DNA of 64,000 nucleotides from Bacteroidales bacterium (GTDB lineage: Bacteria; Bacteroidota; Bacteroidia; Bacteroidales; UBA1715), in the NCBI GenBank assembly GCA_045600045.1, contig JAZRXD010000021.1, positions 9,121 through 73,120 of the forward strand. Direction: 5' to 3'. The notes beneath the pieces were generated by a model, which did not search any database, had not been told where the DNA came from, and was given only the letters and a program-made list of their open reading frames with translations. This document shows, piece by piece, positions 430-20,248 of this stretch. The position numbers were made by a program, and so were the translations under genes. The first letter of the stretch is position 1, and the number at the start of each line of letters is the position of its first letter.

Positions 430-822
430 TTAAAAGTTATCAGTTGTCAGTTGTCTACTTTCAGAAAATTGATAAATGAAAACGGTCAAGTGCCAATTAA
501 AAAACACGTTTAAACATAGAACTGTCGCGTTTCTAATTTCTAAAATCGGGTAAGCTTTTTTACGTGAAATTCGCATTCCAAATCTTTTTGTCGATATTTT
601 GTTAATAAACCCGAAAATTTTGAACAAAATTAACTCGTTATTGTTGAAAAATACATAATTTTACTTTTACTAATTTGAAAAAAATAGTGCGTAAGGCGTA
701 GAGAACGAGAATGTTACAAAAATCACCTAAAAAGAAAGATTTTGGAGTTTTTTGTAACAAAATTGTCTTAGTGTGTGTCTTACAATATTATAGTGAGGTA
801 TCAAACTAAAAGATTAGATATT

Positions 823-903
823 ATGAGGGAACATTTATCTTCTTTAGTGAAAAAACTGGCAGTTGTTGCTATTTTATTCGCTTGTTCTTTAAGAGTATTT
901 GCC
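823..903 (+). other. signal peptide of the giant adhesin
   Basis: Basic n-region (KK), hydrophobic LAVVAILFACSL, and VFA|D cleavage-type motif. Confidence 0.7.
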
Positions 904-3900: not shown

Positions 3901-6900
3901 GACAATAAGGTGTATTATATAGGAGCTTTGACTCATGGAAAAACTACATACAATATAACTTTAACATTGAATGATGGTTATGGTGAAGTAACTCGTGATA
4001 TGGTTGTAAATGTGTTCGATAACCAAGAACCTGTTATTTCTCCATCGGTTATTACTATTGCTAAAACAGGAGATGAAACTTTGGTTCCTTTCGTTATCGA
4101 AGATAAAGATGGAGATATTGTCTCAATTACAAATATATCGGGAACTGATGCATCGAATTTTAAAATAAAGACAAATAAGATTTTCTATATTGGAGACGAA
4201 AACTTGTCTCGTGATGATGCAAATAACAATATAACAGTTACGCTAAGTGATGGTCTTATTTCTGTAAGTTACGATGTTGTTGTTGTGTTAGGGAAAAATC
4301 AGGCTCCTATTTTAACAACAAAATATGTTGAAATCACCGGCGTTGCATCGGATGTGGAAGTCCCTTTGACATTTGAGGATAAGGAAAACGAAACAGTTTC
4401 TATAACTGCAATAAACGGAGATGATGTCGACAAATTCTCGCTAGTTGACGGTACAATTTTTTATATAGGCGGTGTGCTTGATGAGCCACAAGTATATACG
4501 TTATCTGTTGTATTTACCGACGGAATTGCTCTCGAAACAGACAATATCAATGTTTCGATTCTTGTAAACAAAGCTCCAAGTGTTTCGCCGACTGCAATAA
4601 CAATAAAACGTTCAGGTACAGAAACATTGGTCCCAATTTCATTCTCCGACCCTGAAGATGATGCGTTGACTATTTCGGTAAATGATGTCACTAATTTTAA
4701 AATAAAAGATGGAAGTCTATATTATATAGGTAGTAATAAAACCGAAGATACTCCTTTTAATATTTCATTAACACTGAATGATGGAATAAATACTACTGTA
4801 CAACCAGTTACGGTTACGGTTTTAGGAAACAATCTTCCTGAACTTTCGCCTTCCTCTGTTACAATAACAGTTAAAAGGACAACAAGCAGTACGTCTACAA
4901 ATAATAATGTGCCTGTAACAATTTCTGATCCAGATGGAGATGAAATAACAAGTGTTACAATTACGAGTGGTAATGATAAAAATTATTTTACGGTATCGGG
5001 AACTCAAATTATTTTTAAATCCAATAAAAATAATGCAAATACAACAACAACTAATGGAACAACATATAATTTGACTATAGCAATCGTTTCAAATGGGGAA
5101 ACAACAACATTGCCTTTGGCTGTAAAAGTTAATGTTGTAAGTTCTTTAACTACACCAACTCTTACTGTTACGGGTTCTACTCAAGAGTATGGAACAAAAA
5201 TAAGTGAATGCTATACATTTTCAGCAAAGACTAGTTCTTTTTCGTCAACAAATGTTCAAGGTACAGCCTCAATTGTAGGTTATTCAGATGATTATATTCC
5301 TTCTGTAGGAATGCATACATATACTGTATTGTTTACTCCAAATGATTTGACAACGTATGCAACAACAACTAAAACAGTTAACATTACAATCAATAAGAAA
5401 GCAATAACTGTAACATCTGCATCTGGTAGCAAAGAATATGACGGAACGGAGTTAAAAGCAGAAAGTGCATCAGTAACTACAGGTTCATTGGTTGGAGATG
5501 ATATATTGTATTATTCTGATTTTACAAGCATAACAAATGTAGGCTCTGCAGAAAACAATTTTACAATAACAGGGGACGATACGGACAATTACGAAATAAC
5601 CCAAGAAAAAGGTACTTTGTCTATCACAAAGAACACAACAGATGAAAAAATAGTAACTATTACTGGTAATAGTGGAACAAAAATATATAATGGTTCTTCC
5701 CAAAGTGTATCTGGTTTTACTCATGATGCATCTCCAGAATTTACTGTTGCATTAAAATCGGGGAAAAAAGCCGTTGCGACAGGCACGAACGCGGGGACTT
5801 ACAATATGGGTCTAAAAGCCGATATGTTCAATGTAAGTTCTACGAACTACTCAAATATAAAGATTACAGTTGTTGACGGAACGTTGACAATCGCACCAGA
5901 TGCCGTGACCGAGAAGGAAATCACCATCACGGGTAACAACGACGAGAAAACATACACAGGCAGTTCACAGTCAGTTACGGGCTTCACGCATGACGGCGAC
6001 GCAAACTTCACAGTATCGTTGAAGAGTGGCGAGAAAGCTGAAGCATCTGGAACGAACGCTGGCACATACCCAATGGGCTTGACTGCCGATATGTTTAATG
6101 TAAGCTCTACGAACTACTCAAATATAAAGATTACGGTTGTTGACGGAACGTTGACAATCACACCGGATGCCGTGACCGAGAAGGAAATCACCATCACAGG
6201 TAACAACGACGAGAAAACATACACAGGCAGTTCACAGTCAGTTACGGGCTTCACTCACGACGGCGATGCAAGCTTCACAGTGGCATTGAAGAGCGGAAAG
6301 TCGGCAGTTGCATCGGGAACAAATGCTGGTTCATACACAATGGGCTTGACAGCCGACATGTTCAATGTGTCATCGACGAACTACTCAAATATAAAGGTTA
6401 CGGTTGAGGACGGAACGTTGAAAATCGAACCGAAAAATATTTTAATAAAAGGAGGTTCTACGGTAGAGGATAAATACTACGATGGAACAACAGCAACAAC
6501 AACTACACTTGGATCAGTAGATGGAATAGTAGATGGTGATGATGTAACGATAACAGCAGTTGGTACATTGGTAGACGCAAATGCGGGTACTGACAAAACA
6601 GTAAACATTGTTTATACATTGTCTGGTGCAGATAAAGACAATTATGTGGAAATTCTCGGTGAAACAAAAAAAATAACAGTAAGCAAGGCTCCAATCACAG
6701 TAACAACACCGACAGTAAAAGATAAAGAATACGATGCGACGACAGCCGCAGAAATAGACGGAACCCTATCATTTACAGGTGTACAGAACAACGAAGGCAC
6801 AAGCGTAATAAACGTAACGGCCGTTGCCAAATTTGAGGACGTAAAAGTAGGTGACGACAAAGATGTAACAGTAACCTATACTCTTGAAGGAACAGGAAAA

Positions 6901-9900
6901 GACAACTATGTATTGTCAAGCACAACAGGAACAACCACAGCCGACATCACTGCAAAAGAAATCACCCCGTCAGCAACGGGAGTTGATAAGGAATACGATG
7001 GCACAACGACAGCAACGGTAACGAGCGTTTCAGGAAGGGGAATCCTTACTGGCGATGATGTAACAGTAACAGCAACTTCGGCAAACTTTGCTACTGCAAG
7101 CGTAGGAACAAACAAAACTATTACGGTAACCTATTCATTAAGCGGTGCGGATGCAAGTAACTATGTACTTGGCACTTCAACAGCAATCACAGCCGACATA
7201 ACTTCAGCACCAATCACGGTAACATCGGTAACAGCGTCAGACAAGGAATATGACGGTACTACAGATGCGACGATAGGCTCGGTAGTTTTCAGTGGAGTAC
7301 AAAACAGCGAAGGCTCGAGCGTAATCAACGTAACAGCAACAGCTTCGTTTGCCGATGCAAATGTAGGTAAAGACAAAACCGTCAATATAGCATCATACAC
7401 ATTGACAGGAACAGGGGCAAGCAACTATCAGTTAGCAACAGGAGCTCCAACGGCAACAGAAGCCGACATCACAGCAAAAGAAGTAACAATCACAGTTGAT
7501 GATAAAGAAAAGGTCTATGGAGCCACGAACCCAACATTCACAGGTTCTGTATCAGGTTTGATAAACAACAGCGATCTTGGCACAATCTCGTATTCACGTA
7601 TCAGCACAAATGAAAATGCAGGTACGTACACCAACGATTTGACAGCAAGCTACACGACCAACACGAATTACAACGTGTCGGTAACAAAAGGAACGTTCAC
7701 AATTAAACCGATAACAGACGAAATTACGGTAACCATAACAGGAAACAGTGATGAAAAAACATACAGTGGCAGTTCACAGTCGGTAACGGGCTTCACGCAC
7801 GACGGCGACGCAAGCTTCACAGTATCGTTGAAGGAAGGCAAGAAAGCGGAAGCATCCGGCACGAACGCCGGCACGTACGCAATGGGCTTGACAGCCGACA
7901 TGTTCAATGTGTCATCGACGAACTACTCAAATATAAAGGTTACGGTAGAAGACGGAACATTGACAATCACTCCTGATGCGGTAACCGAAAAGGAAATCAC
8001 AATCACGGGTAACAGCGACGAGAAAACATACACAGGCAGTCCTCAGTCGGTAACGGGCTTCACGCACGACGGCGACGCAAGCTTCACAGTATCGTTGAAG
8101 GAAGGCAAGAAAGCGGAAGCATCCGGCACGAACGCCGGCACGTACACAATGGGCTTAACATCGGATATGTTTAATGTAAGTTCGACGAACTACTCAAATA
8201 TAAAGGTTACGGTAGAAGACGGAACATTGACAATCACACCGAAAGAGGTTGATGACGAAGCATATACAGTGACATTAAGCAGCGGAGACAGCTATGAATA
8301 CAACGGTTTGGCACAAGTTCCGGCAGTAGTTGTGAAGGTCAACGGTGTTGAGGTTTCATCAACGGAATATCAGGTGGAATATTCAAACAATAAAAATGTC
8401 GGAGAAGCAACCATCACGGTTACCGATGCCGCAAACGGCAATTATGCTTTTGAAGAAAAGAGCGTAGTTTTCACAATCACTCCCGCAACAATTACGGTAA
8501 ATGGTTCAACAGCAAGCTCCAAAGAATATGATGGTTCAACTTCGGCAACAATAAGTGCTATTGATTTTGAAGGCGTTCAGAATGAAGAATCAACTTCAGT
8601 AATCAATGTTGTAGCAACAACGGCATCGTTCGACAATGCAAATGTAGGAACAGGAAAGACAGTAAGCGTGACATACGCATTGTCGGGAACAGGAGCTTCG
8701 AACTATGTCCTTGCAAATAATAACGGAACAACGACTGGTACAATAACACCAAAAGAGGTGATTTTGAGTTGGGGAACAACAACATTCACATACAATGGTT
8801 CTGTCAAGACAGTAACAGCAGTGGTAACGAACAAGGTAGGATCCGAAACGGTCAATGTGGCAACATACAGCGGCAATACCGAGACAGAAGCTGGAAAATA
8901 TATAGCGACAGCTTTAACATTGGATAACAGCAACTATAAATTGCCGTTAAATGCAACGCAATCATGGTCAATTGAAAAATCGGAAACTGAAAAAGAAATC
9001 ACCATCACAGGTAACAATGATATAAAAATATTCAATGGTAGCACGCAGTCAGTCGAAGGCTTTACGCATGACGGCGACGCAAGCTTCACGGTGGCGTTGA
9101 AGAGCGGAAAATCTGCAATTGCATCAGGCAAGAACGCTGGTTTATATACAATGGGCTTGACGGCAGATATGTTTGATGTAAGTTCAACGAATTATTCAAA
9201 CATAAAGGTTACGATTGTAGATGGTAAATTGACAATCAATTCTCAGACTATCGACGATGATGCTTACGCAATTTCAATCGATGGCGACGAAACATTTACA
9301 TACGATGGAACGTCAAAAGAGCCGAAGATTGTCGTAAAAGTTGGTGAAACAGAAGTTGATGTTGTTGAATACAAAGTTGAATATTTCAGTAATATCAACG
9401 CTGGTACGGCAACAGTGAAGGTTTCCGATGTAGCAAACGGCAACTACACTTTTGCAGACAAGAGTATCAATTTTACAATTGAAAAAGCTACAATTACTGT
9501 AAATGGCTCGATAGCAAGTTCTAAAGAATATGATGGTTTAACTTTGGCAACAATAAGCTCTATTGATTTTGAAGGTGTTCAGAATGAAGAATCGACTTCG
9601 GTAATCAATGTGATTGCAACAACTGCTGCATTTGAGGATGCGAATGCCGAAAATGACAAAACGGTTAATGTAACGTATGCATTGGAAGGAACTGGAATTC
9701 CGAATTATAAACTAGCTGCTACTTCTGGCACAACAATAGCCAATATTACTGCTAAAGAAGTTGAATTGTCTTGGAAACCAAGTCCGGCATTGTTCTCGTA
9801 CGATGGTACGGTTAAAACTGTTACTGCAACGGTTCAAAATCCAGTTGGGTCGGATGTCGTTACGGTAACGAAATATAACAACAATACAAAAACTGATGCT

Positions 9901-12900
9901 GGTGAATATGTTGCAGAGGCTATAGAATTAAGTAGCTCTAACTACAAATTACCTGCAAATGCAAAACAAACTTGGTCAATTGCTGAAGGTATCTTTACTG
10001 TTTCGTTGGATGACGATACATATACGTATGACGGTATTGCACACCATAATACAAAAACAGCAAGTTGTACGGCTATAGGAGGTACTACGGAATATCAATA
10101 TTCATTCGATAAAGAAACATGGGTTTCTGATTTGGCTGATCTTGAACAAACAAATGCAGGCACATATACAATCAATGTAAAAGCTTCGAATTCAAAATAT
10201 AAAACAGATGCAACTTGTACAGCAAGTTTGATTATCAATAAGGCAACAATTACGGTAGAAGAGGTTTTGGTGGCCGACAAATATTACGATGGAACAAAAA
10301 CAGCTGTTGTTTCTGATGTTACATTTTCAGGTAATGTTTCTGGGCAAGGTTCTGAAATAGTTACAGTTACGCCTTCTGCTTCATTTATTGATGCAAATGT
10401 TGGCACAGAAAAGACTGTAAATGTTGTATATACATTAGCTGGAACTGGTGCTTCGAACTATGTACTTGCAAGTGAATCGGGTTCAACAACAGCCGATATC
10501 AATGCTAAGAATGTTGTAATTACTGTAAATTCATCGTATAAAACTTACGGAGAATCAGATCCTACATTTACAGGTTCTGTTGATGGTTTGGTACAAGCCG
10601 GCGATCTTGGAACAATCAGTTATGTACGTACAAATAGTAGTGTAAGTGCTGCCGACAGTTACGAAAAAGTAATCAATGCTATTTTTGATGCAAATGCGAA
10701 CTATGATGTAAAGGTTGAAAAAGGTGATTTCACAATCAATCAAAAAGAAGTTGAGTTAGTTTGGAGTTCTACAATTGAGTTTGATTATGACGGTAGCAAA
10801 CATAGTGTTTCAGTTTCGGTTAAGGCGGAAAGTTTGGTTGGAACAGACGAATGTTCAGTGGAAGTTTATGATAATGAACAAACTGCAGTAGGTAATTATA
10901 CTGCAACTGCAATAGGCTTGAGTAATGAAAATTACAAATTACCATCTAGCGGAACACAATTATCTTGGGCAATTGTTTCTTCGGAAACTGCTCCGGTTAT
11001 TACTTGGAATATTGGTGAACTTGAAAGTTACAAATACGATGGTACAGAAAAAACTCCTGCTCCATCTTCTATCCAAGTAAATGATGTTGATTTGATAAAA
11101 GATGTTGATTATACAATTTCTTATGCCAATAATAAAAATGCAGGAACGGCAACTGTCACTATAAAAGCAAAAGGTGGTTATTCGTTCGACGATGTGACAA
11201 AAGAATTCGCAATTGCGAAACGTATAGTTACATTAACTTCCGATAACGGCGAAAAAACGTATGATGGAACAGCTTTAACAAATAGTACGGTGTTCGTTGG
11301 CGACGACAAATTTGTTGACGGCGAAGGTGCAACCTATTCTGTAACTGGAACTCAGACAAATGCTGGTTCAAGTCAAAATACATTTACTTATGAATTGAAA
11401 GAAGGAACATCGGCATTAAATTACGAAATCAGTTCGATTTATGGGGCTTTGAATGTACTTACCTACGACGAAAAATACACTATTACAGTTAATGGTAATA
11501 AGGCAACAGTTCCATTTACTGGCGAAGAACAAAGCATAAGTGGTTATACAATAAGTGATTACGATGCAACAATCACATTAAATGGACCAGAACAAACTTC
11601 TGTTAAGGCAACAGGTTCAGCTGTAGGTTCATACAATATGGGATTGAAAGTTGAAGATTTCACTGCAACTTCATCTAACTATACAAATATTGAAATCGTT
11701 GTAAAAGATGGTAAACTAACAATCAGCACAAAAGCTATTGTTGTAACTGCAACTATTGATGAGGATGAAATTATTTATGATGGTTCGGAACACAAACCAA
11801 CATATACTGTAGTTGATGGCAACGAACAAGTAATTTCTCCAGACGAATATATTGTTGAATATTCTGAAAATACGACTGATGCTGGTGAAGTGACAGTTAC
11901 AATCAGTCCAAAAGAAGGGTCATCTTTCGATTTCGAACCAATTGTTGAAACATTTACGATTGAGCAAAAAACAGTGACTTTGGAATGGAATTCTGATTCT
12001 CCATTTGAGTTTGATAATACAGAAAAATCGGTAAGTATTAAATCAGTTGCTGGTATTGTTTCTGGTGATGAATGTTCTATTGTTCTTTCAGGTGATAAGG
12101 GAACCGAAGTCAAAGAATACGAAGCTACGGCAAGTCTTAGCGGTAAAGATAAGGGCAATTATAAATTGGCAAGCGACAATAGCTCTTTGGCTTGGGAAAT
12201 AACAACTAAGGAACTTGAAAAAACGAATTTCACAATCAGTGGCGACGAAGTTGTTTACAATGGCGAATCACAAGATGTTTCGTTCACGTCCGATCCTGAG
12301 TTGATTGAGGGTACAGATTACGAAGTGTACTATAAAATTGATGGTGAATGGACAACAGAAGCTCCATCAAATGCTGGGGAATATGAAGTGAAAATTGAGA
12401 TTATCAATCCAAATTATTCTGATGAGGATATTGAAGGTTGGACATTGGTAATTCAACAAAAAGAAGTTTCTCTTGTTTGGAGCAAAACTACTTCATTTGA
12501 ATATGACGGAACTGCAAAATCTGTAACAGCAGAGCTTGAAGATGTATTGAGTGGCGATGATTGTAAAGTTGTGTTGAGTAACAATACCAATACCGCTGTT
12601 GGTGAATACATTGCCACTGCATCGCTTGATGGAGCAGATAAAAACAATTATATAATCAAAGGTTCTACAAGTTTGGCTTGGGAAATTCTTATATCAGGTG
12701 ATGAATATGTAATTACGGTAACAGGAAATTCTGCAACAAAAGTATATAATGGTTCAGAACAAAATGTAAGTGGTTATACAGTAAGTTCTTACGATGCTTC
12801 TATTACATTTAATGGTCCTGCACAAGATGATGCTGTTGCAAAAGGAACTACTACGGGTACATATTATATGGGATTGACAAAGAGTGATTTCTCAGCATCT

Positions 12901-15900
12901 TCGTCTATTTATTCTAATATTACAATAAAAGTTGTTGATGGTTCATTGACAATTTCACGTAAACCTCTTGATGTAATAACCGCAACAATCGAAGAAGGCG
13001 AGATTATTTATAACGGCGAAGAGCAAGAACCAAGCTATATACTGACAGACGGCGACGGAAATGTCCTCTCTCCAAGTGAATATGAAATTGTTTTCAATAA
13101 CAATGTCAATGTCGGTGAAGCAGATGTCATTATAAAACCGACAAAAAATTCTCAATATAATTTCAAAGAATTTGTGGAACATTTCACGATATCCCCTAAG
13201 GAGATAGCGTTGAAGTGGAGTGAAACCACCGAGTTCGAATACGACGGCTCCGAGAAGTCGGTAACCGTAGAGGCGAGCGGCATCATCTCCAGCGACAAGT
13301 GCACGACGAAGGTGACGGACGTGACGGGCGTGAACGCCGGCGACCATACGGCGACGGTAACATTGGACGGCGCAGACAAGGACAACTACAAGCTACCGTC
13401 AAACAGCACGCAGTCATGGACGATATCCAAGGCACCTCTATACACGATAGAAGTCCAAGGCAAGAGCGCGACGAAGATCTACACGGGCGCAGAGCAGAGC
13501 GTAAAGGGCTACACGTATAACCCATACGACGCAACGATAACAATCACGGAATCTCCATCCCAGGAAGAAATCTTTGCGAAGGGAACTTCGGTCGGCACGT
13601 ACCCAACCAACATGACAGAAGACATGTTCACTGCGACCTCTCCGAACTACGAAACAGTCAAGTTCGAGATAAAGAACGGCGCATTGACGATAAAGACGAA
13701 CCCAGTCGAAGTGACAGCGACGATTGCCGAAGACGTGATAACATACAACGGTTCGCCACAGGAACCTAAGTTCGTGGTTAAGGACAAAGACGACAACGAA
13801 ATCCCCGAATCAGCCTACGAAGTGACCTACTCGAACAACACGAGCACCGGCGAGGCAACGGCAACAATCCGTCCGAAGTCCGACTCACCGTACAACTTCG
13901 AGGAGATAACGGAATACTTCACGATATCGCCTAAGGAAATAGAGCTTGCATGGAGCGAAACCACCGAGTTCGAATACGACGGCATGGAGAAGAACGTAAC
14001 GGTAGAGGCGACCGGCATCGTTTCCGGCGACAAGTGCTACGTCAAGGTAGAAAATGCCAAAGCGACGGAGGTAGGCACCTATACTGCGACAGCTACCCTT
14101 GAAGGCTCCGACAAGGGCAATTATGTTTTGCCTGCGGTCCCATCCCAGCCGTGGTCAATCGAACCAAAGAAATTAACAGAGTCTAATTTCGAAATTTCGG
14201 GTGAAAATACCGTTTACGACGGCCAGCCACAAGAAGTCAGCTTCTCAAGCGAGCCGGAATTGGAAGAAGGCACGGATTACGAAGTATACTACAAAGTAGA
14301 TGGCGAATGGACCACCGAAGGTCCAACAAATGCCGGCGAATATGAAGTCAAGCTAGAAATAACCAATCCTAATTATGCATCCACCGACATAGAAGGCTGG
14401 ACTTTGACAATAGAGAAAGGCACCCAGGAAAAACCTGTGATAACCAGCACGCCAACAAGTTCGGAGGTAGCCGAGGACGGCAAGATGATAGGCCTTGCGA
14501 CCACGATGGAAATCAGGAAGGAAGGCGAAACGACGTACGTTCCTGTAACCGATGAGAACGAGGATTTTGCCAACGGAACGTACTATGTCCGTTACGCAGA
14601 AACGGACAATTTGTATGCTTCTGAAGACACGAAGGTTGTGATAACACCAAACGTAAAAGAAGACTTGACGACAGCCGACTTCGAATTCACGGCGCCATCG
14701 GATTTGACATATGACGGCACGGAAAAAGAAGCGACATTCACAACCGATAAAGAAGGTGTGGGTAACATAATGGTTTACTATTCAAATGAAGGTGGTTCAA
14801 CCTGGACGACCGAGAAACCTGTAGAAGCAGGCGACTACATTGTCAAGATAGAAGTTGAGGAAACTGAAAAATATAATGGTGTGACATTGACAGATCCAAG
14901 TTGGTATTTTACAATAGAAAAAGGCGAGCAATCTGCTCCTGTAGTAACCGGCAAACCAACATCAACTCCGGTTACACTTGATGGTAAGATCGACGGCTTG
15001 ACAACGGCAATGGAAATCCGCAAGGATGGCGAATCAGAATATATTAAATATACGAAAGTAACTAATCCAGACATGCTTCTTGAACCTGGAATATATTACG
15101 TCCGTTATGCGGAAACCGACAACTTATATGCTTCGGAAGAAACAGCAGTTGTTATTGAATCAGCGCCAAAACAAGATCCTGTAGTTGCCGACTTCGAATT
15201 CTCGGCTCCATCAGACTTGACTTATGACGCTACAGAGAAAGAAGCATCGGTATATACAGATGAAGAAAATATTGGCGACATCACAATCTACTATTCAAAT
15301 GACGGCGGCGAAACCTGGACGACCGATAAACCTGTTGAAGCTGGTGACTATATTGTCAAAATTGAAGTTGAAGAAAACGAATTTTATAATGGTATTTCAT
15401 TGGCTGACGATGATTGGAACTTTACAATTGAGAAGGGAGCCCAAGAAAAACCAGATGTTGCAGGTCAACCAACTTCAACTCCAACATCATCTGACGGTAA
15501 GATAGAAGGTTTAACAACAGCAATGGAAATCCGCAAGGAAGGCGAGACAACATATTCTCAGGTAACTGATCCTGATGCAGATTTCGAAGCAGGAACATAT
15601 TACGTACGTTATGTCGAAACAGACAACTTGAATGCTTCGGAAGACGTGTCAGTTGTAATTAATCAGGCTGAAAAACAAAATCGTTTGCCGGAAGAATACG
15701 AGGTTGTAATTCCTGCAGTAGAAGATTTGGTTTACGATGGCGAAACTAAAGAAGTAACTGTTGATGGCGACGGCGACATCGAAATTTGGTATTCGGGTGA
15801 TGGCGGTGAAACTTGGACAACCGACAAACCAGTTGATGCTGGTTATTACGAAGTGAAGATTGTTGTTTCAGAAGATGATAACTATAATTCTGCTGAATTG

Positions 15901-18525
15901 ACCGATCCAAGTTGGAACTTCACAATTGAAAAAGGTTCTCAAGAAAAACCATTTATAACAACTGTTCCTGCAAGCTCCAATGTTGCAGAGGATGGTAAAA
16001 TGAACGAACTTGCAACAACAATGGAAATCCGCAAAGATGGAGAATCTACATATACTCCGGTAATTGATGTGGATATGAATTTTGCAGTTGGCACATATTA
16101 CGTACGTTACGCTGAAACTAAAAACTTGAATGCTTCAGACGAAACGGAAGTTGTTATCACATCGACACCAAAGAAAACATTGGATATAAGCGATTTCATG
16201 TTCAATCAACCTGTTGAATTAGTTTATGATGGAAAAGAAAAAGAAATCGAAATTACAACTGGTTTGGAAGGTGTTGGTGAAATGACAATTTATTATTCTA
16301 CTGATGGTGGAGAAACATGGACGACAGACAAACCTATAGATGCAGGTGATTACATCGTAAAAGTTGAAATTGCCGAAAGTGCTGAATACGAAGCAATTAC
16401 ATTAACAAGTGATGATTGGACATTTGTGATTAGCAAAGGCTCTCAAGAAGTTCCTGAAGTGTCTGGAATTCCAACATCAAAAGAAGATGTTGCCGATGGT
16501 AAAATTAAAGGCTTGACAACGGCTATGGAAGTTCGTAAGGAAGGTGAATCTACATATACTCCGGTTGCCGATCCTGATATGGAATTCGAAACTGGTACAT
16601 ACTATGTTCGTTATGCCGAAACTAAGAACTTGAAGGTTTCTGAAGAAACTCCAGTTGAAATTGAAAGTGGAACAAAACAAACTCATACAACAGAGGATTA
16701 CGTAGTTGTTTTGCCTTCAATTGAAGATTTGGTTTATGATGGAAAATCTAAAGAAGTTACTGTTGATGGCGAAGGAGATGTTGTTATTTGGTACTCAAGC
16801 GACGGTGGCGAAACTTGGACAACGGAAAAGCCAGTTGAAGCAGGTGATTATGAAGTGAAGATTGTTGTTGCTGAAGATGATGATTATTATTCAGCTGAAT
16901 TGACAGATCCAGATTGGAACTTCTCAATCGCTAAAGGTAGCCAAGACAAACCAGAAGTTGAAGGATTTCCTGCAAGTTCAGAAACTGCTATCGATGGTAA
17001 GATTACTGGTTTGACTGATGGTATGGAATATCGTTTGGTTGGCGAAACAACATATACTCCAGTAACTGATCCTGAAATTTTTGTAGGAGTGGGAACATAT
17101 TATGTTCGTTTTGCTGAAACAAATAACTTACAAGCTTCCGAAGATCAAGAAATTGTGATTTCAGTTGCTCCAAAGAATTCATTAACAGAATTAGACTTCA
17201 CGTTTACTGTTCCGGATAATTTGACATACGACGGAACAGAAAAAGAGGCAAAATTCTCAACAGATGCCGAAGGTGTTGGCGATGTGATAGTTTATTACTC
17301 AAATGATGGCGGTGATTCTTGGACAACCGACAAGCCTGTTAATGTAGGAACATACAATATTAAGATTGAGGTTGTTGAAAGTGAAAATTATGATGAAACA
17401 ACTCTAACTGACGATAGTTGGATGTTCGCAATCACAAAAGCAGATCAAGACGCTCCTGAAGTCTTTGGTATTGCTACTTCGGCACCTGATATGAACGATG
17501 GAATGATTAAAGGTTTGGCTGCCGGAATGGAAGTAAGTAACGACAATGGTGAAACTTGGATCAATATTTCCGACCCAACAATGGCTGAATTGATAGACTG
17601 GATTACCAATGGTAACGATACTACAATGTTGGATGAAAATATGTTGTTTGCTCCAGGAGAATACTTAGTTCGTTACGCTGAAACAGAAAATCTAAATGTT
17701 TCAGAATCTACTTCGGTAACTATTGAAGAAGGTACGTTACCTGATATCGATATGGTTGATAAAGATAGCTTCGAAACAGATGTTGATGGATTCTGTCCTG
17801 AAACTGACGGTGAAGTTAAATTCGTTGTCAACTATGGCGATCCAACAGAATATCGTGCTATAATTAAGGGAATTGACACTGTTGCTTTGGCTGATGCTCA
17901 ATATCAAGCTCTTGCCGATGATGGTAAATTCAACCTTTACATTCCTGATTGCAAAGCTGGATTGTATGTGATTGAGGTACAGTTCCGTAACGACGAAGGT
18001 TTGGAATCTCTTGTTTACCAATTCGATGTGACTGTTAATTTGTCGAAGAAATACATCACAAAAATTTGGGATGACGTTGTGTCAATCATCAATAAAGTTG
18101 ATTTGAACGATCCAACCAATATGACAAAACAATTCGTTGAATATCAATGGTATCGCAATGATGAAGAAATTCCTGGTGCAACATTACCATACTACAATGA
18201 AGAAGGTGGTTTGCAAGGCGAATATTACGTTACGGTGGTAACTACTGATGGTAATGAACTTCGTACTTGTAGTCAAGAATGGCACTTGATTTATGGCGAA
18301 ATTACTGCCAAAGTTTATCCAAATCCTGTTGTTACAACAGCTACAGTGGAATTGTCGGCAGACAATGGAATGGAACACATTGTTGAGGTAAATAACATTT
18401 ATGGAACTTCGGTTTACAGCACAACATTCTTTGGTCAAAAGACTACAATTGATTTGCAAAATCTTGTGGCTGGCGATTATGTAATAGTTGTAGATGGATA
18501 TGCAGTAAAGGTTGTTAAAAAATAG
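823..18525 (+). CDS. giant (~5,900 aa) secreted repeat adhesin; T9SS cargo with cadherin-like and YDG-motif (MBG-type) beta-sandwich repeats
   Basis: Single stop-free ORF of 17.7 kb. The ATG at 823 gives a signal peptide, MREHLSSLVKKLAVVAILFACSLRVFA|DGS; the track start at 775 is an upstream GTG. The C-terminus, KVYPNPVVTTATVELSADNG...VKVVKK, fits a T9SS type-A C-terminal sorting domain. The body is built from ~85-90-aa modules with recurrent (E/K)YDG(T/S) motifs. Confidence 0.9.
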   Translation: MREHLSSLVKKLAVVAILFACSLRVFADGSRDMYPADYYTLHGITKTDITKYRAPIVAYEKIDAISGCPFPTNATMKVYAKEGEKIYVASSLFSTKHNANSKITYKAPDGVTSGTFTRNGNIGLIANRKAELAGPKLPNGQPSNGYQSCVITVGAGQTGVWEIEFNGNANYNYDDTKTATVDDWVDGSSCLMNAFDISVLNETGDAFIPGRVYTNVLNIYFTSATQKGYAEEWYSGFYVLTNTGYLYYVDANGQNPCLGTFFANNKGIQTGYGDFIQSSTSIKYAKGGKPSYNSVVWDTGSGLAKAGTIPIYDPRVPDNVVKKTDADGNLVDYYEDVTHKLFFTKPAADMPEFAPCVYDDQVVTTWLISKENAKNAPVLSNLCIAGKESHLACVLGPEGVEIYFDANCAGDFMIEMDFGEDYTPRILEGTCIEGANTIDWDGKDGDGNLVENAMISLAGKLKSAEIHFPFVDLDNNKHGLVLNQLNANWNEVARNIIYWNDSNVQTSKTTGDSEIASGESGVTSPNHNFSYTSTSDVSGKKTSRGDYAIIDTWTFAQGATASSQNAVVRSNFIDLKATSITCNKTEARIGELLTYTLEVENVHHDMIELQSEGVMVSTEADADSASVGVWFPDGGFYTTEVSLVSSDDPDCIVVQQPSGEEFGLGFINLKNGKKATIKVTGYAGAKMAHSLVEPVGFIMRPGDYFEIDAANLNNDGMPLIPQRTQSGDKDGEYDTYDNNNLTTANPVIFFLNSNPICSDDNVSGEAKVQITGNVFDNDNDPDNDLDSDPQVISDILIVEKFDVEGVGTNYTPGSSVTISNVGTVRLNQDGSFTFTSVGAFVGPVPAVTYYVSDQYTAAATPVEFRDKEIAPGRDTATIYIGIAYNFPPEVSPLAVTIEHKSAKTALPLTFSDIENNTIIISSLTGDDAENFEFTGTTVYYNGTVTREDAVYNITLTLTDDGDNAKTATYDIAVTVKKNNAPTVSSSPIDVTAVSAQTLVPYVFRDAENDPITVAVSGTDSDKFTVIDNKVYYIGALTHGKTTYNITLTLNDGYGEVTRDMVVNVFDNQEPVISPSVITIAKTGDETLVPFVIEDKDGDIVSITNISGTDASNFKIKTNKIFYIGDENLSRDDANNNITVTLSDGLISVSYDVVVVLGKNQAPILTTKYVEITGVASDVEVPLTFEDKENETVSITAINGDDVDKFSLVDGTIFYIGGVLDEPQVYTLSVVFTDGIALETDNINVSILVNKAPSVSPTAITIKRSGTETLVPISFSDPEDDALTISVNDVTNFKIKDGSLYYIGSNKTEDTPFNISLTLNDGINTTVQPVTVTVLGNNLPELSPSSVTITVKRTTSSTSTNNNVPVTISDPDGDEITSVTITSGNDKNYFTVSGTQIIFKSNKNNANTTTTNGTTYNLTIAIVSNGETTTLPLAVKVNVVSSLTTPTLTVTGSTQEYGTKISECYTFSAKTSSFSSTNVQGTASIVGYSDDYIPSVGMHTYTVLFTPNDLTTYATTTKTVNITINKKAITVTSASGSKEYDGTELKAESASVTTGSLVGDDILYYSDFTSITNVGSAENNFTITGDDTDNYEITQEKGTLSITKNTTDEKIVTITGNSGTKIYNGSSQSVSGFTHDASPEFTVALKSGKKAVATGTNAGTYNMGLKADMFNVSSTNYSNIKITVVDGTLTIAPDAVTEKEITITGNNDEKTYTGSSQSVTGFTHDGDANFTVSLKSGEKAEASGTNAGTYPMGLTADMFNVSSTNYSNIKITVVDGTLTITPDAVTEKEITITGNNDEKTYTGSSQSVTGFTHDGDASFTVALKSGKSAVASGTNAGSYTMGLTADMFNVSSTNYSNIKVTVEDGTLKIEPKNILIKGGSTVEDKYYDGTTATTTTLGSVDGIVDGDDVTITAVGTLVDANAGTDKTVNIVYTLSGADKDNYVEILGETKKITVSKAPITVTTPTVKDKEYDATTAAEIDGTLSFTGVQNNEGTSVINVTAVAKFEDVKVGDDKDVTVTYTLEGTGKDNYVLSSTTGTTTADITAKEITPSATGVDKEYDGTTTATVTSVSGRGILTGDDVTVTATSANFATASVGTNKTITVTYSLSGADASNYVLGTSTAITADITSAPITVTSVTASDKEYDGTTDATIGSVVFSGVQNSEGSSVINVTATASFADANVGKDKTVNIASYTLTGTGASNYQLATGAPTATEADITAKEVTITVDDKEKVYGATNPTFTGSVSGLINNSDLGTISYSRISTNENAGTYTNDLTASYTTNTNYNVSVTKGTFTIKPITDEITVTITGNSDEKTYSGSSQSVTGFTHDGDASFTVSLKEGKKAEASGTNAGTYAMGLTADMFNVSSTNYSNIKVTVEDGTLTITPDAVTEKEITITGNSDEKTYTGSPQSVTGFTHDGDASFTVSLKEGKKAEASGTNAGTYTMGLTSDMFNVSSTNYSNIKVTVEDGTLTITPKEVDDEAYTVTLSSGDSYEYNGLAQVPAVVVKVNGVEVSSTEYQVEYSNNKNVGEATITVTDAANGNYAFEEKSVVFTITPATITVNGSTASSKEYDGSTSATISAIDFEGVQNEESTSVINVVATTASFDNANVGTGKTVSVTYALSGTGASNYVLANNNGTTTGTITPKEVILSWGTTTFTYNGSVKTVTAVVTNKVGSETVNVATYSGNTETEAGKYIATALTLDNSNYKLPLNATQSWSIEKSETEKEITITGNNDIKIFNGSTQSVEGFTHDGDASFTVALKSGKSAIASGKNAGLYTMGLTADMFDVSSTNYSNIKVTIVDGKLTINSQTIDDDAYAISIDGDETFTYDGTSKEPKIVVKVGETEVDVVEYKVEYFSNINAGTATVKVSDVANGNYTFADKSINFTIEKATITVNGSIASSKEYDGLTLATISSIDFEGVQNEESTSVINVIATTAAFEDANAENDKTVNVTYALEGTGIPNYKLAATSGTTIANITAKEVELSWKPSPALFSYDGTVKTVTATVQNPVGSDVVTVTKYNNNTKTDAGEYVAEAIELSSSNYKLPANAKQTWSIAEGIFTVSLDDDTYTYDGIAHHNTKTASCTAIGGTTEYQYSFDKETWVSDLADLEQTNAGTYTINVKASNSKYKTDATCTASLIINKATITVEEVLVADKYYDGTKTAVVSDVTFSGNVSGQGSEIVTVTPSASFIDANVGTEKTVNVVYTLAGTGASNYVLASESGSTTADINAKNVVITVNSSYKTYGESDPTFTGSVDGLVQAGDLGTISYVRTNSSVSAADSYEKVINAIFDANANYDVKVEKGDFTINQKEVELVWSSTIEFDYDGSKHSVSVSVKAESLVGTDECSVEVYDNEQTAVGNYTATAIGLSNENYKLPSSGTQLSWAIVSSETAPVITWNIGELESYKYDGTEKTPAPSSIQVNDVDLIKDVDYTISYANNKNAGTATVTIKAKGGYSFDDVTKEFAIAKRIVTLTSDNGEKTYDGTALTNSTVFVGDDKFVDGEGATYSVTGTQTNAGSSQNTFTYELKEGTSALNYEISSIYGALNVLTYDEKYTITVNGNKATVPFTGEEQSISGYTISDYDATITLNGPEQTSVKATGSAVGSYNMGLKVEDFTATSSNYTNIEIVVKDGKLTISTKAIVVTATIDEDEIIYDGSEHKPTYTVVDGNEQVISPDEYIVEYSENTTDAGEVTVTISPKEGSSFDFEPIVETFTIEQKTVTLEWNSDSPFEFDNTEKSVSIKSVAGIVSGDECSIVLSGDKGTEVKEYEATASLSGKDKGNYKLASDNSSLAWEITTKELEKTNFTISGDEVVYNGESQDVSFTSDPELIEGTDYEVYYKIDGEWTTEAPSNAGEYEVKIEIINPNYSDEDIEGWTLVIQQKEVSLVWSKTTSFEYDGTAKSVTAELEDVLSGDDCKVVLSNNTNTAVGEYIATASLDGADKNNYIIKGSTSLAWEILISGDEYVITVTGNSATKVYNGSEQNVSGYTVSSYDASITFNGPAQDDAVAKGTTTGTYYMGLTKSDFSASSSIYSNITIKVVDGSLTISRKPLDVITATIEEGEIIYNGEEQEPSYILTDGDGNVLSPSEYEIVFNNNVNVGEADVIIKPTKNSQYNFKEFVEHFTISPKEIALKWSETTEFEYDGSEKSVTVEASGIISSDKCTTKVTDVTGVNAGDHTATVTLDGADKDNYKLPSNSTQSWTISKAPLYTIEVQGKSATKIYTGAEQSVKGYTYNPYDATITITESPSQEEIFAKGTSVGTYPTNMTEDMFTATSPNYETVKFEIKNGALTIKTNPVEVTATIAEDVITYNGSPQEPKFVVKDKDDNEIPESAYEVTYSNNTSTGEATATIRPKSDSPYNFEEITEYFTISPKEIELAWSETTEFEYDGMEKNVTVEATGIVSGDKCYVKVENAKATEVGTYTATATLEGSDKGNYVLPAVPSQPWSIEPKKLTESNFEISGENTVYDGQPQEVSFSSEPELEEGTDYEVYYKVDGEWTTEGPTNAGEYEVKLEITNPNYASTDIEGWTLTIEKGTQEKPVITSTPTSSEVAEDGKMIGLATTMEIRKEGETTYVPVTDENEDFANGTYYVRYAETDNLYASEDTKVVITPNVKEDLTTADFEFTAPSDLTYDGTEKEATFTTDKEGVGNIMVYYSNEGGSTWTTEKPVEAGDYIVKIEVEETEKYNGVTLTDPSWYFTIEKGEQSAPVVTGKPTSTPVTLDGKIDGLTTAMEIRKDGESEYIKYTKVTNPDMLLEPGIYYVRYAETDNLYASEETAVVIESAPKQDPVVADFEFSAPSDLTYDATEKEASVYTDEENIGDITIYYSNDGGETWTTDKPVEAGDYIVKIEVEENEFYNGISLADDDWNFTIEKGAQEKPDVAGQPTSTPTSSDGKIEGLTTAMEIRKEGETTYSQVTDPDADFEAGTYYVRYVETDNLNASEDVSVVINQAEKQNRLPEEYEVVIPAVEDLVYDGETKEVTVDGDGDIEIWYSGDGGETWTTDKPVDAGYYEVKIVVSEDDNYNSAELTDPSWNFTIEKGSQEKPFITTVPASSNVAEDGKMNELATTMEIRKDGESTYTPVIDVDMNFAVGTYYVRYAETKNLNASDETEVVITSTPKKTLDISDFMFNQPVELVYDGKEKEIEITTGLEGVGEMTIYYSTDGGETWTTDKPIDAGDYIVKVEIAESAEYEAITLTSDDWTFVISKGSQEVPEVSGIPTSKEDVADGKIKGLTTAMEVRKEGESTYTPVADPDMEFETGTYYVRYAETKNLKVSEETPVEIESGTKQTHTTEDYVVVLPSIEDLVYDGKSKEVTVDGEGDVVIWYSSDGGETWTTEKPVEAGDYEVKIVVAEDDDYYSAELTDPDWNFSIAKGSQDKPEVEGFPASSETAIDGKITGLTDGMEYRLVGETTYTPVTDPEIFVGVGTYYVRFAETNNLQASEDQEIVISVAPKNSLTELDFTFTVPDNLTYDGTEKEAKFSTDAEGVGDVIVYYSNDGGDSWTTDKPVNVGTYNIKIEVVESENYDETTLTDDSWMFAITKADQDAPEVFGIATSAPDMNDGMIKGLAAGMEVSNDNGETWINISDPTMAELIDWITNGNDTTMLDENMLFAPGEYLVRYAETENLNVSESTSVTIEEGTLPDIDMVDKDSFETDVDGFCPETDGEVKFVVNYGDPTEYRAIIKGIDTVALADAQYQALADDGKFNLYIPDCKAGLYVIEVQFRNDEGLESLVYQFDVTVNLSKKYITKIWDDVVSIINKVDLNDPTNMTKQFVEYQWYRNDEEIPGATLPYYNEEGGLQGEYYVTVVTTDGNELRTCSQEWHLIYGEITAKVYPNPVVTTATVELSADNGMEHIVEVNNIYGTSVYSTTFFGQKTTIDLQNLVAGDYVIVVDGYAVKVVKK
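3475..5150 (+). repeat. six tandem ~270-290-bp cadherin-like/Ig-like coding repeats
   Basis: Six ~90-aa units of the form xAPxVSPxxVTIxxxxxxTLVPxxFxDxExDxxTxSxxxGxDxxxFxIxxxxxYYIGxxxxxxxYNITLTLxDG....V.V. Confidence 0.7.
5620..6420 (+). repeat. 3 x 267-bp in-frame tandem repeat (89-aa module TITPDAVTEKEITITGNNDEKTYTGSSQSVTGFTHDGDA...NYSNIK(I/V)TV(V/E)DGTL)
   Basis: The string gatgccgtgacc recurs at 5899 and 6166, exactly 267 nt apart. Copy 1 (5620-5886) uses AT-rich codons; copies 2-3 are GC-rich and near-identical. Confidence 0.85.
7699..8229 (+). repeat. second set of the same module: 264-bp + 267-bp tandem copies
   Basis: cggtaacgggcttcacgcacgacggcgacgcaagcttcac... at 7781 recurs at 8048 (offset 267) with ~108 nt identical. 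A further single copy lies at ~8970-9240. Confidence 0.85.
13190..14700 (+). other. intragenic GC-rich block (compositional island inside the adhesin ORF)
   Basis: Hand counts: 63/100 GC at 13261-13360 and 51/100 at 14401-14500, against 34/100 at 12661-12760. The transition is abrupt at ~13190. Confidence 0.8.
14413..17436 (+). repeat. six tandem ~498-513-bp (166-171 aa) bi-domain coding repeats plus a partial seventh
   Basis: Unit starts ((E/S/A/T)K(G/A)xQ(E/D)xP) lie at 14413, 14917, 15430, 15928, 16432, 16930 and 17434. Each unit reads GxPTSxxxxDGKIxGLTTAMEIRKEGETTYxPVTDPDxxFxxGTYYVRYAETxNLxASE followed by ...YDGxEKE...YYSxDGGETWTTxKPVxAGDYxVKI. Confidence 0.85.
18295..18522 (+). other. 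T9SS C-terminal sorting domain (type A, Por_Secre_tail-like)
   Basis: GEITAKVYPNPVVTTATVELSADNGMEHIVEVNNIYGTSVYSTTFFGQKTTIDLQNLVAGDYVIVVDGYAVKVVKK. Confidence 0.75.
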
Positions 18526-18580: not shown

Positions 18581-20248
18581 ATGAAAAAAGCGATTTTAAT
18601 TTTTAGTTTGTTTTTTGCTGTAATACAATCATTCTCTCAAGAGTATAAAGTATATAAGCATAATATTGATTTTAATTTTGGGGGCGGTTTGCATTCCGTT
18701 CAATTCGATCCAACCGAAGGGGGTGATCACAGAATGAGAATGGGTGGTACTTTCAATGCGCAATATCGTTATGCAATGGATGAAAATTGGAGTTTTGCCA
18801 TTGGTTTAGGTTTTACGACTTATTGCGGAAAGTCTAAATACGATTTATTGCAGGACAATATGTTATATACCGATCCCGAAAACGGCGAAGAATATCATTT
18901 TAAAGCGACTTTTACAGATTGGAATGAAATTCAACGTTCGTTTGATTTTGAAGTCCCAATCGCAGCATATTACCGTTATCCAATCAACCCAACGTGGAGC
19001 TTGGTTGGTGGCGCTGGTTTTAAATTGGATGTCCCTACAAGCAAAAAATTCAAAACTAAAAACGAAAGTTCCGGCGGAGAGTTAGTTCGTTCGGGTGAAT
19101 TCGAAAGTACCAATGTTGAATATAGCGATCTTCCTCAACATGGATTTTACGGTTCTGATGAGTATGAGGGCAAAGCAAAAATGAAAGGTGCTGGTATGTC
19201 GATGTTCGGTGAAGTTGGCGTTACTCGTCCTTTAAAAAACAATATGTCTTTGTACCTAGGAACGTATTTCAGTCATAGTTTGATAAATTCCTTGAAGGAG
19301 AGCGATAATCATTTGTACGATCCTGAAAACGAAAAATATTGCGGTGTCGTTTCTTCAGATTTGGTAAAGAAAACGCATTTGCTTGCTTTTGGTGTAAAAG
19401 CTGGTTTGAGTTTAGGATTCCCTCGCAATATTCTTCCTCCTATTGATACTGCCTTGTTGGCTGTAGAACGTTTGGCTGCTGAACAAGCCGAAGCAGAACG
19501 TCTTGCTGCCGAGAAAAAAGCAGAAGAGGAACGCTTGGCGGCAGAACAAGCAGAAGCAGAAAGATTGGCCGCCGAACAAGCAGAGGCAGAACGTCTTGCT
19601 GCCGAGAAGAAAGCTGAGGAGGAACGCTTAGCGGCAGAACAAGCAGAGTCAGATAGAATTGCTGCTGAAAAGAAAGCTGAAGAAGATAGATTGGCTGCCG
19701 AAAAAGCCGAAACAGAAAGAATCGCGGCTGAGAAGAAGGCCGAAGAGAAACGAATTGCTGCTGAAAAAGCTGAAGCAGAACGCCTTGCTGCCGAAAAGAA
19801 GGCCGAGGAAGAAAGAATCGCGGCAGAGAAGAAAGCCGAAGAAGAACGAATTGAGGCGGAAGCAGTTGCACAGGCCGAGGCTGCCGTTGAATGGATTAAT
19901 AAAAACCTTGTAGTAAACTTTGATCTTGGTAAGGCAAACATTCTGTCAAATGAAGAAATTGACGCGAAGATTCAATTTTTGATTGAGTTCTTGCAAAAAT
20001 ATCCTGAAAGAAAACTTCTTATAAAAGGTCATACGTGTGATTTAGGTAATCCTGCAACAAATGTTAAGTTGAGTAAACAACGTGCCGATGCAATGAAGAC
20101 AATTCTTGTTTTAAAAGGTTGTAATCCAAATAATATTGTGACAAAAGGTATGGGTTCCGCTGAACCTTTGGTTCCAAATACGAACGAAGAAAATCGTAAG
20201 AAGAATCGTCGTATCGAAATGCAGATTGAAAAAATCCTAAAGGAATAA
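18581..20248 (+). CDS. OmpA-family outer-membrane protein: N-terminal beta-barrel, central coiled coil, C-terminal OmpA peptidoglycan-binding domain
   Basis: Signal peptide [20 protein letters not shown]. The C-terminus, ...[28 protein letters not shown]...NRRIEMQI, is OmpA_C-like. Confidence 0.85.
19466..19866 (+). repeat. ~12 tandem 30/33-bp coding repeats ([10 protein letters not shown] / [11 protein letters not shown])
   Basis: Alternating 10- and 11-residue units give a 21-residue (3-heptad) periodicity. Both antisense ORFs here are repeat artefacts. Confidence 0.85.

Follow-up and report, generated by a model that had tools for sequence, protein, structure and literature searches.

We found that a giant surface-protein gene in a 64,000-nt stretch of DNA from an uncultured Bacteroidales bacterium (assembly GCA_045600045.1, contig JAZRXD010000021.1, positions 9,121 to 73,120 of the forward strand; hereafter the window) is built of segments with strikingly different synonymous codon usage. 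The composition of one block in this gene differs significantly from the rest: in its core, the G+C content of third codon positions (GC3) is 0.72, compared with 0.21-0.27 in the flanks. In our judgement, there is about an even chance that parts of the gene were imported in layers, by recombination from the homolog of a GC-richer relative, and that they then changed locally (by duplication, unequal recombination or conversion) and decayed. The open reading frame (ORF) mechanically covers 775-18525, beginning with a GTG at 775; its true start is the ATG at 823.

823-18525, plus strand: giant surface-protein gene (17.7 kb; 5,900 aa) with YDG/MBG repeat modules, a signal peptide and a type IX secretion system (T9SS) sorting domain

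GC3 along the gene was segmented by an unsupervised Bernoulli change-point analysis, and the following segments were obtained.

775-4689: GC3 0.26
4690-5757: GC3 0.15
5758-8439: GC3 0.44, with a T content at third codon positions (T3) of 0.20
8440-9468: GC3 0.36
9469-12978: GC3 0.21
12979-13182: GC3 0.32
13183-14046, plus strand: core block, GC3 0.72 and T3 0.06, seen in the change-point analysis, the fine-scale profile and the codon table
14047-14721, plus strand: intermediate tail of the block, GC3 0.52, from the change-point analysis
14722-18522: GC3 0.27

One change-point fell exactly at 13183, the first codon of a YDG module (...FVEH^FTISPKE...). CAT at 13180-13182 is the final host-style codon, and TTC at 13183 begins the GC-style run. 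Across this step, GC3 rose from 0.10-0.34 (12625-13224) to 0.86 (13225-13374), with a peak of 0.85-1.0 at 13225-13344. A first-pass annotation of the window had described a switch within ~15 nt at a module junction and had counted GC by hand (34/100 at 12661-12760, 63/100 at 13261-13360 and 51/100 at 14401-14500). These counts were exact, the switch was confirmed, and the GC3 profile is not flat. It gave 13190-14700 as the limits of the block; the 3' edge is not sharp, however, and lies nearer 14721-14850. Baseline GC3 (0.27) returned from about 14722-14850. The tail at 14047-14721 takes in what is left of the second YDG module, then module Z and one unit, the first, of the ~500-nt repeats at the C-terminal end, and it showed 68-73% nucleotide identity to the downstream AT-rich repeats. 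The other genes of the window provided the comparison set: in 396 100-codon windows from 33 other ORFs, GC3 had a mean of 0.349, a standard deviation (sd) of 0.061 and a maximum of 0.55, which places the block ~6 sd out. Spurious overlapping frames excepted, none of these ORFs had a GC3 above 0.46. The compositional shift in the block is confined to third (synonymous) codon positions, the GC contents of first and second positions (GC1/GC2) being flat (0.452/0.439 in the block vs 0.447-0.455/0.389-0.421 in the AT-rich paralogous units).

The block also has a characteristic codon dialect. It favors AAG, GAC, AAC, GGC, ACG and GCG, while T-ending codons are almost absent. Leucine is encoded by TTG only, with CTG/CTC at 0 of 16 positions; ATA accounts for 59% of the isoleucine codons (ATC for 10 of 29), and GGG for none of the 32 glycine codons. 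A real high-GC homolog (L004; 61% GC, GC3 0.88) uses CTG/CTC for 38 of its 39 leucines and ATC for 41 of its 42 isoleucines. Considering that the block lacks this usage, its putative donor would not have been a generic high-GC organism. In codon usage, the block correlated best with further GC3-rich patches of its own gene (r=0.79). Moreover, a clade relative with 43% GC (L009) shares the ATA/CTA/TTG/AAG habits of the block (ATA 0.33, CTA 0.2) and has few CTG/CTC codons. An argument against a GC-rich origin from the flat GC1/GC2 and the large excess of lysine over arginine was dropped as uninformative: in about 27 members of the family, these features hardly follow GC3, and a module array at GC3 0.66 in another organism (L010) resembles the block.

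Module boundaries were mapped by phmmer/blastp. The block consists of one co-linear repeat unit, YDG-MBG-X-YDG-Z, followed by the start of the C-terminal ~500-nt repeat type.

12451-13182, plus strand: AT-rich paralogous unit YDG-MBG-X directly upstream of the block, GC3 0.20
13183-13443, plus strand: YDG1 module, GC3 0.78
13444-13695, plus strand: MBG module, GC3 0.67; 46-47% identity to the AT-rich MBG modules at 12712 and 11479
13696-13917, plus strand: X module, GC3 0.68; 45-46% identity to its AT-rich counterparts at 12976 and 11728
13918-14172, plus strand: YDG2 module, GC3 0.64; at its 5' end, ~125 nt repeat the start of YDG1
14173-14421, plus strand: Z module, GC3 0.45; 69.5% identity to the AT-rich Z module at 12214
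13183-13305, plus strand: left copy of a direct repeat, ~125 nt, 73-90% identity to the right copy
13918-14040, plus strand: right copy of the direct repeat, ~125 nt

The modules of the block shared 44-49% protein identity with their AT-rich paralogs (Z excepted, as listed) and 43-47% with the orthologous modules of two relatives, L002 and L009 (60% for Z, with L002). Because they are equally distant from their AT-rich neighbors and from the orthologs of relatives, they are old lineages of the same module family and not recent local copies. In the stretch 13314-13910, no nucleotide-level similarity to anything else in the window was detected. Thus, the earlier view that these modules are not in-situ duplicates of the AT-rich neighbors was upheld. 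The parallel peptides quoted in its support begin at 13183/11953, 13441/12706 and 14269/12310. The third of them (GTDYEVYYK...) has no value as evidence of exchange, since this motif, held by the Z module, is conserved even across species. The first-pass annotation had also pointed to an internal duplication, and its 27-mer does recur, at 13222 and 13957, with a spacing of 735 nt instead of 732. The corresponding 735-nt unit (13183-13917) has the ~125-nt direct repeat on both sides, and on the right this repeat ends where GC3 changes, at 14046. Identity between paralogs rises abruptly from 43% to 83% at 13183; over the 60 nt upstream, the match to the counterpart is no more than 37-57%. Unequal recombination or conversion within the 5' segment of the YDG modules has left this footprint.

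The block is not the sole GC-rich stretch of the gene, as had been assumed, for a second zone of raised GC3 lies upstream.

5758-9468, plus strand: second compositionally foreign zone, T3-poor and weaker than the block, from the change-point segments
5656-5922, plus strand: chimeric MBG module A0, with a codon-style switch inside the module (change-point at 5758)

This zone includes tandem MBG copies at 5923, 6190, 7732 and 7999, with GC3 of 0.55-0.60 and 78-91% nucleotide identity, as well as a stretch (6475-7524) that is rich in A at third codon positions (A3-rich) and T3-poor. At its left edge, the 5' ~100 nt of module A0 have a GC3 of 0-0.07 and are only ~52% identical in nucleotides, but ~80% identical in protein, to the copies designated A, C and D. 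From about 5800 onward, its identity to copy A is 84-96%. Where one MBG peptide exists in an AT and a GC version, nearly every synonymous site is different, and the differences include serine TCT vs AGT/TCA, which is not a change from a weak to a strong base pair (W-to-S). Such differences argue for long separate histories of the two versions. The composition of A0 implies that two codon versions of one module family exist, joined in register, and A0 itself is best read as an in-register crossover inside a module, at 5758-5820. Recombination, as first proposed, is supported by the module junction and identity jump at 13183 and by this endpoint inside a module. Just before the breakpoint at 5758, the stretch 4690-5757 is itself unusual in its low GC3 (0.15, vs a host gene average of 0.35).

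The style of the second zone was also found in another sample. An independent 1.5-kb metagenome contig (L012; ENA ERZ27247225 k141_933578) showed 83% nucleotide identity to positions 7206-7706 of the window, in the same T3-poor/A3-rich style. Since lineage and style are shared together, the T3-poor codon style is a heritable property that travels with the module lineage. In this contig, which comes from a relative, a 293-aa adhesin-like ORF (L012:195-1076) starts in the middle of an MBG module and sits between ATP-synthase-b-like and NadE-like genes. This ORF may represent an orphan fragment or cassette; alternatively, the short-read assembly may have collapsed here.

The AT-rich MBG module at 12712-12954 (GC3 0.11) shared 70% protein identity with the MBG modules of L010:7774-10659, which belong to a 50%-GC, Firmicute-like organism with Flg_new/MucBP domains. 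Its identity to the MBG module of the block, 730 nt away, was 46%, and to MBG modules elsewhere in its own gene ~40-47%. Being nearer to L010 than to the block, this module shows that the modules of the giant gene are not monophyletic, and its closeness to L010 suggests an older, cross-phylum module exchange.

Syntenic loci of three relatives were found with the downstream OmpA-like gene as anchor. The only full-length ortholog, in L009 (GCA_024401535.1; 43% GC), is a single homogeneous segment with a GC3 of 0.46, equal to that of its neighbors. C-terminal fragments of ~1,000 residues were available from L002 (36% GC; OmpA 63% identical), with GC3 of 0.16-0.48, and from L007 (46% GC), where GC3 is 0.36-0.48 over most of the length and climbs to 0.56-0.66 across the final three 50-codon windows. 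GC level varies within the clade and, as the L009 gene is uniform and neither fragment has a step comparable to that at 13183, extreme patchiness is not a property of the family. In a survey of long family ORFs (30 in all), the gene studied here was the most extreme, with a GC3 range of 0.66 (at most 0.42 in the others) and a step between adjacent windows of 0.47 (at most 0.35). Milder intragenic compositional patches occur in other genes of this kind, namely in L016 and L010. In the giant surface-protein ORF of L016 (JGI Ga0247611_10009781), a 630-nt patch (L016:2086-2715) has a GC3 of 0.80 between stretches of 0.49 and 0.57. The idea that MBG arrays are generally GC-rich or T3-poor was dropped, the array of L010 simply matching its own genome. 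Polarised W-to-S vs S-to-W counts among the MBG copies were dropped too, having no valid outgroup, and paralog-specific singletons reflecting mutation bias under both import and endogenous enrichment.

Considering its YDG and MBG domains and its C-terminal Por_Secre_tail, the gene product is most probably a giant T9SS-secreted cell-surface protein of Bacteroidota with immunoglobulin-like (Ig-like) YDG/MBG modules. In Pfam, YDG (PF18657) scored 238 bits with 7 stretches and a further 57 bits (6e-72), MBG_2 scored 49.5 and 35.6 bits, and MBG_3 63.8 bits (MBG being PF18676/PF18887); multiple YDG and MBG domains exceeded the Pfam gathering score. The N-terminus from ATG 823 reads MREHLSSLVKKLAVVAILFACSLRVFA|DG and, judged by eye, is a putative Sec signal peptide. 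The sorting domain is at the other end.

18313-18522, plus strand: Por_Secre_tail, the T9SS C-terminal sorting domain (PF18962; 27.7 bits, cut-off 27; E=3.5e-6)

It occupies the last 70 residues (2847-2916 of the second half of the giant protein) and is also present in the orthologs L009 and L005. No T9SS machinery genes were seen in the 64-kb window. The host is of gut/rumen type, with about 38% GC, and ordinary chromosomal genes adjoin the giant gene (CoA-transferase, GlnRS, AsnRS and NrdD). At 90% identity or more, the GlnRS groups with MAG-derived proteins (from metagenome-assembled genomes) labelled Bacteroidales bacterium. The OmpA-family gene directly downstream lies at 18581-20248, and its pairing with the giant T9SS gene is kept in at least 4 related Bacteroidales genomes (36-46% GC), which suggests a functional pairing, for example as anchor or partner. 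This OmpA-like gene contains a coiled-coil-like tandem repeat at 19465-19853, with periods of 30-33/63/93 nt, which gives rise to a local bump in GC and AT skew and to a spurious 210-aa antisense ORF at 19309-19941. Further along the window, a 1,082-aa ORF at 51393-54641 had no NCBIfam match at E<=1e-5.

How could such a gene be formed? The homologous modules are adjacent, on the same mRNA and the same strand, so expression, strand, and regional mutation bias or replication context cannot explain a GC3 difference of 0.5. Either the modules have different histories or a module-specific process acts. We favor different histories, and module exchange across lineages does appear to have a precedent in the same gene, in the MBG module at 12712 and its likeness to L010. 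According to this import scenario, the stretch 13183-14721 would have recombined in from a homologous giant-adhesin gene that had long evolved under GC-ending, T3-avoiding codon usage. Its donor, to go by the codon dialect, may have been a GC-richer member of the same Bacteroidales clade. The youngest layer would be 13183-14046 (GC3 0.72), including the 735-nt unit produced by unequal recombination or conversion, while 14047-14721 (GC3 0.52) would be an older or partly homogenised layer. The zone at 5758-9468 would be separate and older, its left edge being the in-register crossover inside a module. With frame and module register kept, an intact protein would result, its stalk carrying divergent modules, its length and surface altered. 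The data show the compositional step and its exact position, the module homologies, the chimeric module, the contrast with the syntenic relatives and the non-monophyly of the modules; that the block is foreign, which lineage gave it, in what order the events took place and whether they were adaptive is inferred.

Several results weigh against import. No donor of the block was found among 1.84 billion representative proteins searched exhaustively with HMMER (best hit 49% identity), in the GTDB genomes (genome scan), in the JGI metagenomes (two scans, with a single protein and with an alignment), by a word-indexed protein search, or in IMG/VR, phages and plasmids (the plasmids by both DNA and protein). 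No donor lineage is nearer than the recipient's own paralogs, external identity (at most 49%) being equal to that of the intragenic paralogs. The donor anticipated by the first-pass annotation was accordingly missing from the protein, genome, metagenome, virus and plasmid collections, and no silent copy of the block exists elsewhere in the 64-kb window, so that a silent cassette there was rejected. The 5' junction shows no nucleotide homology that would explain a homologous crossover. No sampled genome matches the block dialect well: L009 and L007 are rich in ACT/GCT/GGT, and the block is rich in ACG/GCG/GGC. The source assembly is probably a metagenome-assembled genome (MAG). The OmpA anchor matched only itself and hits of at most 63%, with no same-species public assembly for the junction. 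Finally, all repeat pairs of the gene with at least 77% nucleotide identity over at least 120 nt are GC3-rich (GC3 0.43-0.78), a pattern equally expected if GC enrichment were linked to conversion. The junction was not independently confirmed by exact look-ups of its flanking genes, and a walk from the close GlnRS gene in a sister genome did not reach it, synteny not being conserved. In the literature, no description of such a phenomenon for MBG/YDG or T9SS proteins was found.

The main rival, which we regard as unlikely, is an endogenous one, in which a module subfamily converting among its own copies, or with unseen paralogs or cassettes, was driven to GC-ending codons by GC-biased gene conversion (gBGC) in the course of concerted evolution, mismatches in heteroduplexes being repaired in favor of GC. 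The lack of an external donor in public data is in keeping with it. The block retains host-like idiosyncrasies (TTG-only leucine, ACG over ACC, no GGG), and the GC3 peaks at 13225-13344 and 13975-14034 lie within the tract of YDG1/YDG2 similarity. The GC3-rich repeat pairs just mentioned point the same way, long AT-rich pairs reaching only 65-68%. Nevertheless, for ~600 nt in the part richest in GC (13314-13910), the window offers no similar sequence with which to convert, and one AT-rich pair (15672-15951/16674-16953) has 79% identity at a GC3 of about 0.2-0.34. Among the differences between AT and GC versions are some other than W-to-S, for instance serine TCT/AGT. GC1/GC2 are not raised and leucine has not shifted from TTG to CTG, although the family is compositionally constrained. 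Moreover, reported effects of gBGC in bacteria amount to a few percent of GC3, not +0.5. A related possibility, next in probability and rather doubtful, is that the GC style was made within the lineage itself, biased mismatch repair pushing frequently recombining modules or orphan cassettes like the L012 fragment to an extreme GC3.

We consider it improbable that the pattern is an artefact of assembly or binning, i.e. that giant-adhesin orthologs of two relatives, living together but differing in GC, were fused into a chimera, or that repeats were mis-joined. It is true that the source is an uncultured Bacteroidales, on a 110-kb NCBI contig without protein annotation, and probably a MAG, that relatives with the same locus (36-46% GC) co-occur in one sequencing project (SRR183983xx), and that repeat-rich genes are classic sites of misassembly. 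However, the style flips at 13183 within at most 15 nt, and no repeat is shared across the junction. Graph or overlap assemblers depend on exact identity to make a join, so the AT/GC junction must be present in at least one actual molecule. Frame and module register are intact at 13183, 13918 and 5758, the GC3 of the block is higher than in any sampled relative, and the odd composition of the second zone was confirmed by the independent sample, L012. Direct import from the homologous adhesin of a much higher-GC, phylogenetically distant organism, the donor first proposed, is very unlikely. The local GC3 of 0.86-1.0, the existence of homologous MBG/YDG proteins in high-GC organisms (L004) and the cross-phylum module similarity would suit it, but the leucine and isoleucine usage of the block is far from that of L004, as detailed above, GGG is absent from its glycine codons, and L009 is the better fit. 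The nearest proteins are the gene's own paralogs and the clade orthologs, not the high-GC homologs. Least probable of all, and in our opinion hardly credible, is local selection on synonymous sites, be it on the speed of translation, on folding during translation, on how stable or structured the mRNA is, or toward codon scrambling that would keep neighboring repeats from recombining. Such selection would account for differences at synonymous sites only and for the specific avoidance of T-ending codons. Yet the block has no excess RNA structure (z=+0.82 vs dinucleotide shuffles) and no Rfam match, on which grounds a structured RNA was rejected. The preferred codons ATA, ACG, GCG and GGC are not typical optimal codons. 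The GC-rich copies are those most alike, and they stand in tandem (91%, 7732/7999), the opposite of recombination avoidance, and the pattern is absent from the full-length L009 gene, the L002 and L007 fragments varying far more mildly. An invertible segment was rejected too, only two weak inverted repeats being present. The stop-free ORFs on both strands, noted earlier as a sign of high GC, are trivial (50-130 aa), and an antisense gene was rejected, no antisense ORF exceeding 130 aa.

If the import is true, the gene is a very clean natural example of sub-genic module exchange building a giant T9SS surface protein in gut or rumen Bacteroidales, with several layers of different age preserved in one reading frame. 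It would bear on the origin of adhesin and stalk diversity in uncultured commensals. Detection of horizontal gene transfer (HGT) gene by gene would miss such an event, and loci of this kind may be flagged or broken in the quality control of MAGs. Should the GC enrichment instead have arisen within the lineage, the gene would lend unusually strong support to a GC bias tied to recombination in bacteria. With frequently recombining modules or orphan cassettes as its source, it would exemplify a very strong, module-local gBGC coupled to a cassette-style diversification of a T9SS adhesin.

We regard the giant gene as a further case of a known category, mosaic genes or partial HGT; it is uncommonly clear-cut, though not without precedent. 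Classic cases come from pneumococcus (pbp/pspA), from Neisseria (surface antigens) and from Borrelia (ospC). As in mosaic genes, which are defined by partial HGT or intragenic recombination (PMC3241670), host-type and seemingly donor-type segments alternate in one intact frame of a surface-protein gene, and the breakpoints are visible by composition and by similarity jumps. Unlike the textbook cases, the segments here are repeat modules of 44-49% identity and not near-identical alleles; the GC3 contrast (+0.5) is far larger, and one breakpoint is exactly at a module junction. Cassette antigenic variation by gene conversion from silent copies is known from pilE/pilS, vlsE and MgPa. As in these systems, segments of a presumably expressed surface gene appear to have been replaced in register, and a relative (L012) carries what may be an orphan piece of an adhesin gene. 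Here, however, the 64-kb window holds no silent cassette, silent cassettes of the same genome would be expected to share the composition of the host, and no sign of switching in progress was seen. The periscope-type giant surface proteins, with SHIRT, Rib or G5-E arrays, vary in repeat number or cassettes (PMC8201768). With them our gene shares a long Ig-like array as a surface stalk and evidence of unequal recombination (the 735-nt unit; MBG copies of 78-91% identity). In periscope proteins, near-identical DNA repeats are gained and lost within a lineage, whereas the added modules are divergent and compositionally foreign here; and periscope proteins are sortase-anchored and Gram-positive, whereas the present host is a T9SS-secreting Bacteroidales. 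Giant adhesins are also known as T9SS cargo in Bacteroidota, e.g. of the SprB type (PMC5445135, PMC10202324). Unlike these, the present protein consists of YDG/MBG modules and belongs to an anaerobic gut/rumen-type Bacteroidales, with no motility context seen. Like SprB-type cargo, it combines a putative signal peptide with an extracellular region that is repetitive and very large, and ends in a Por_Secre_tail.

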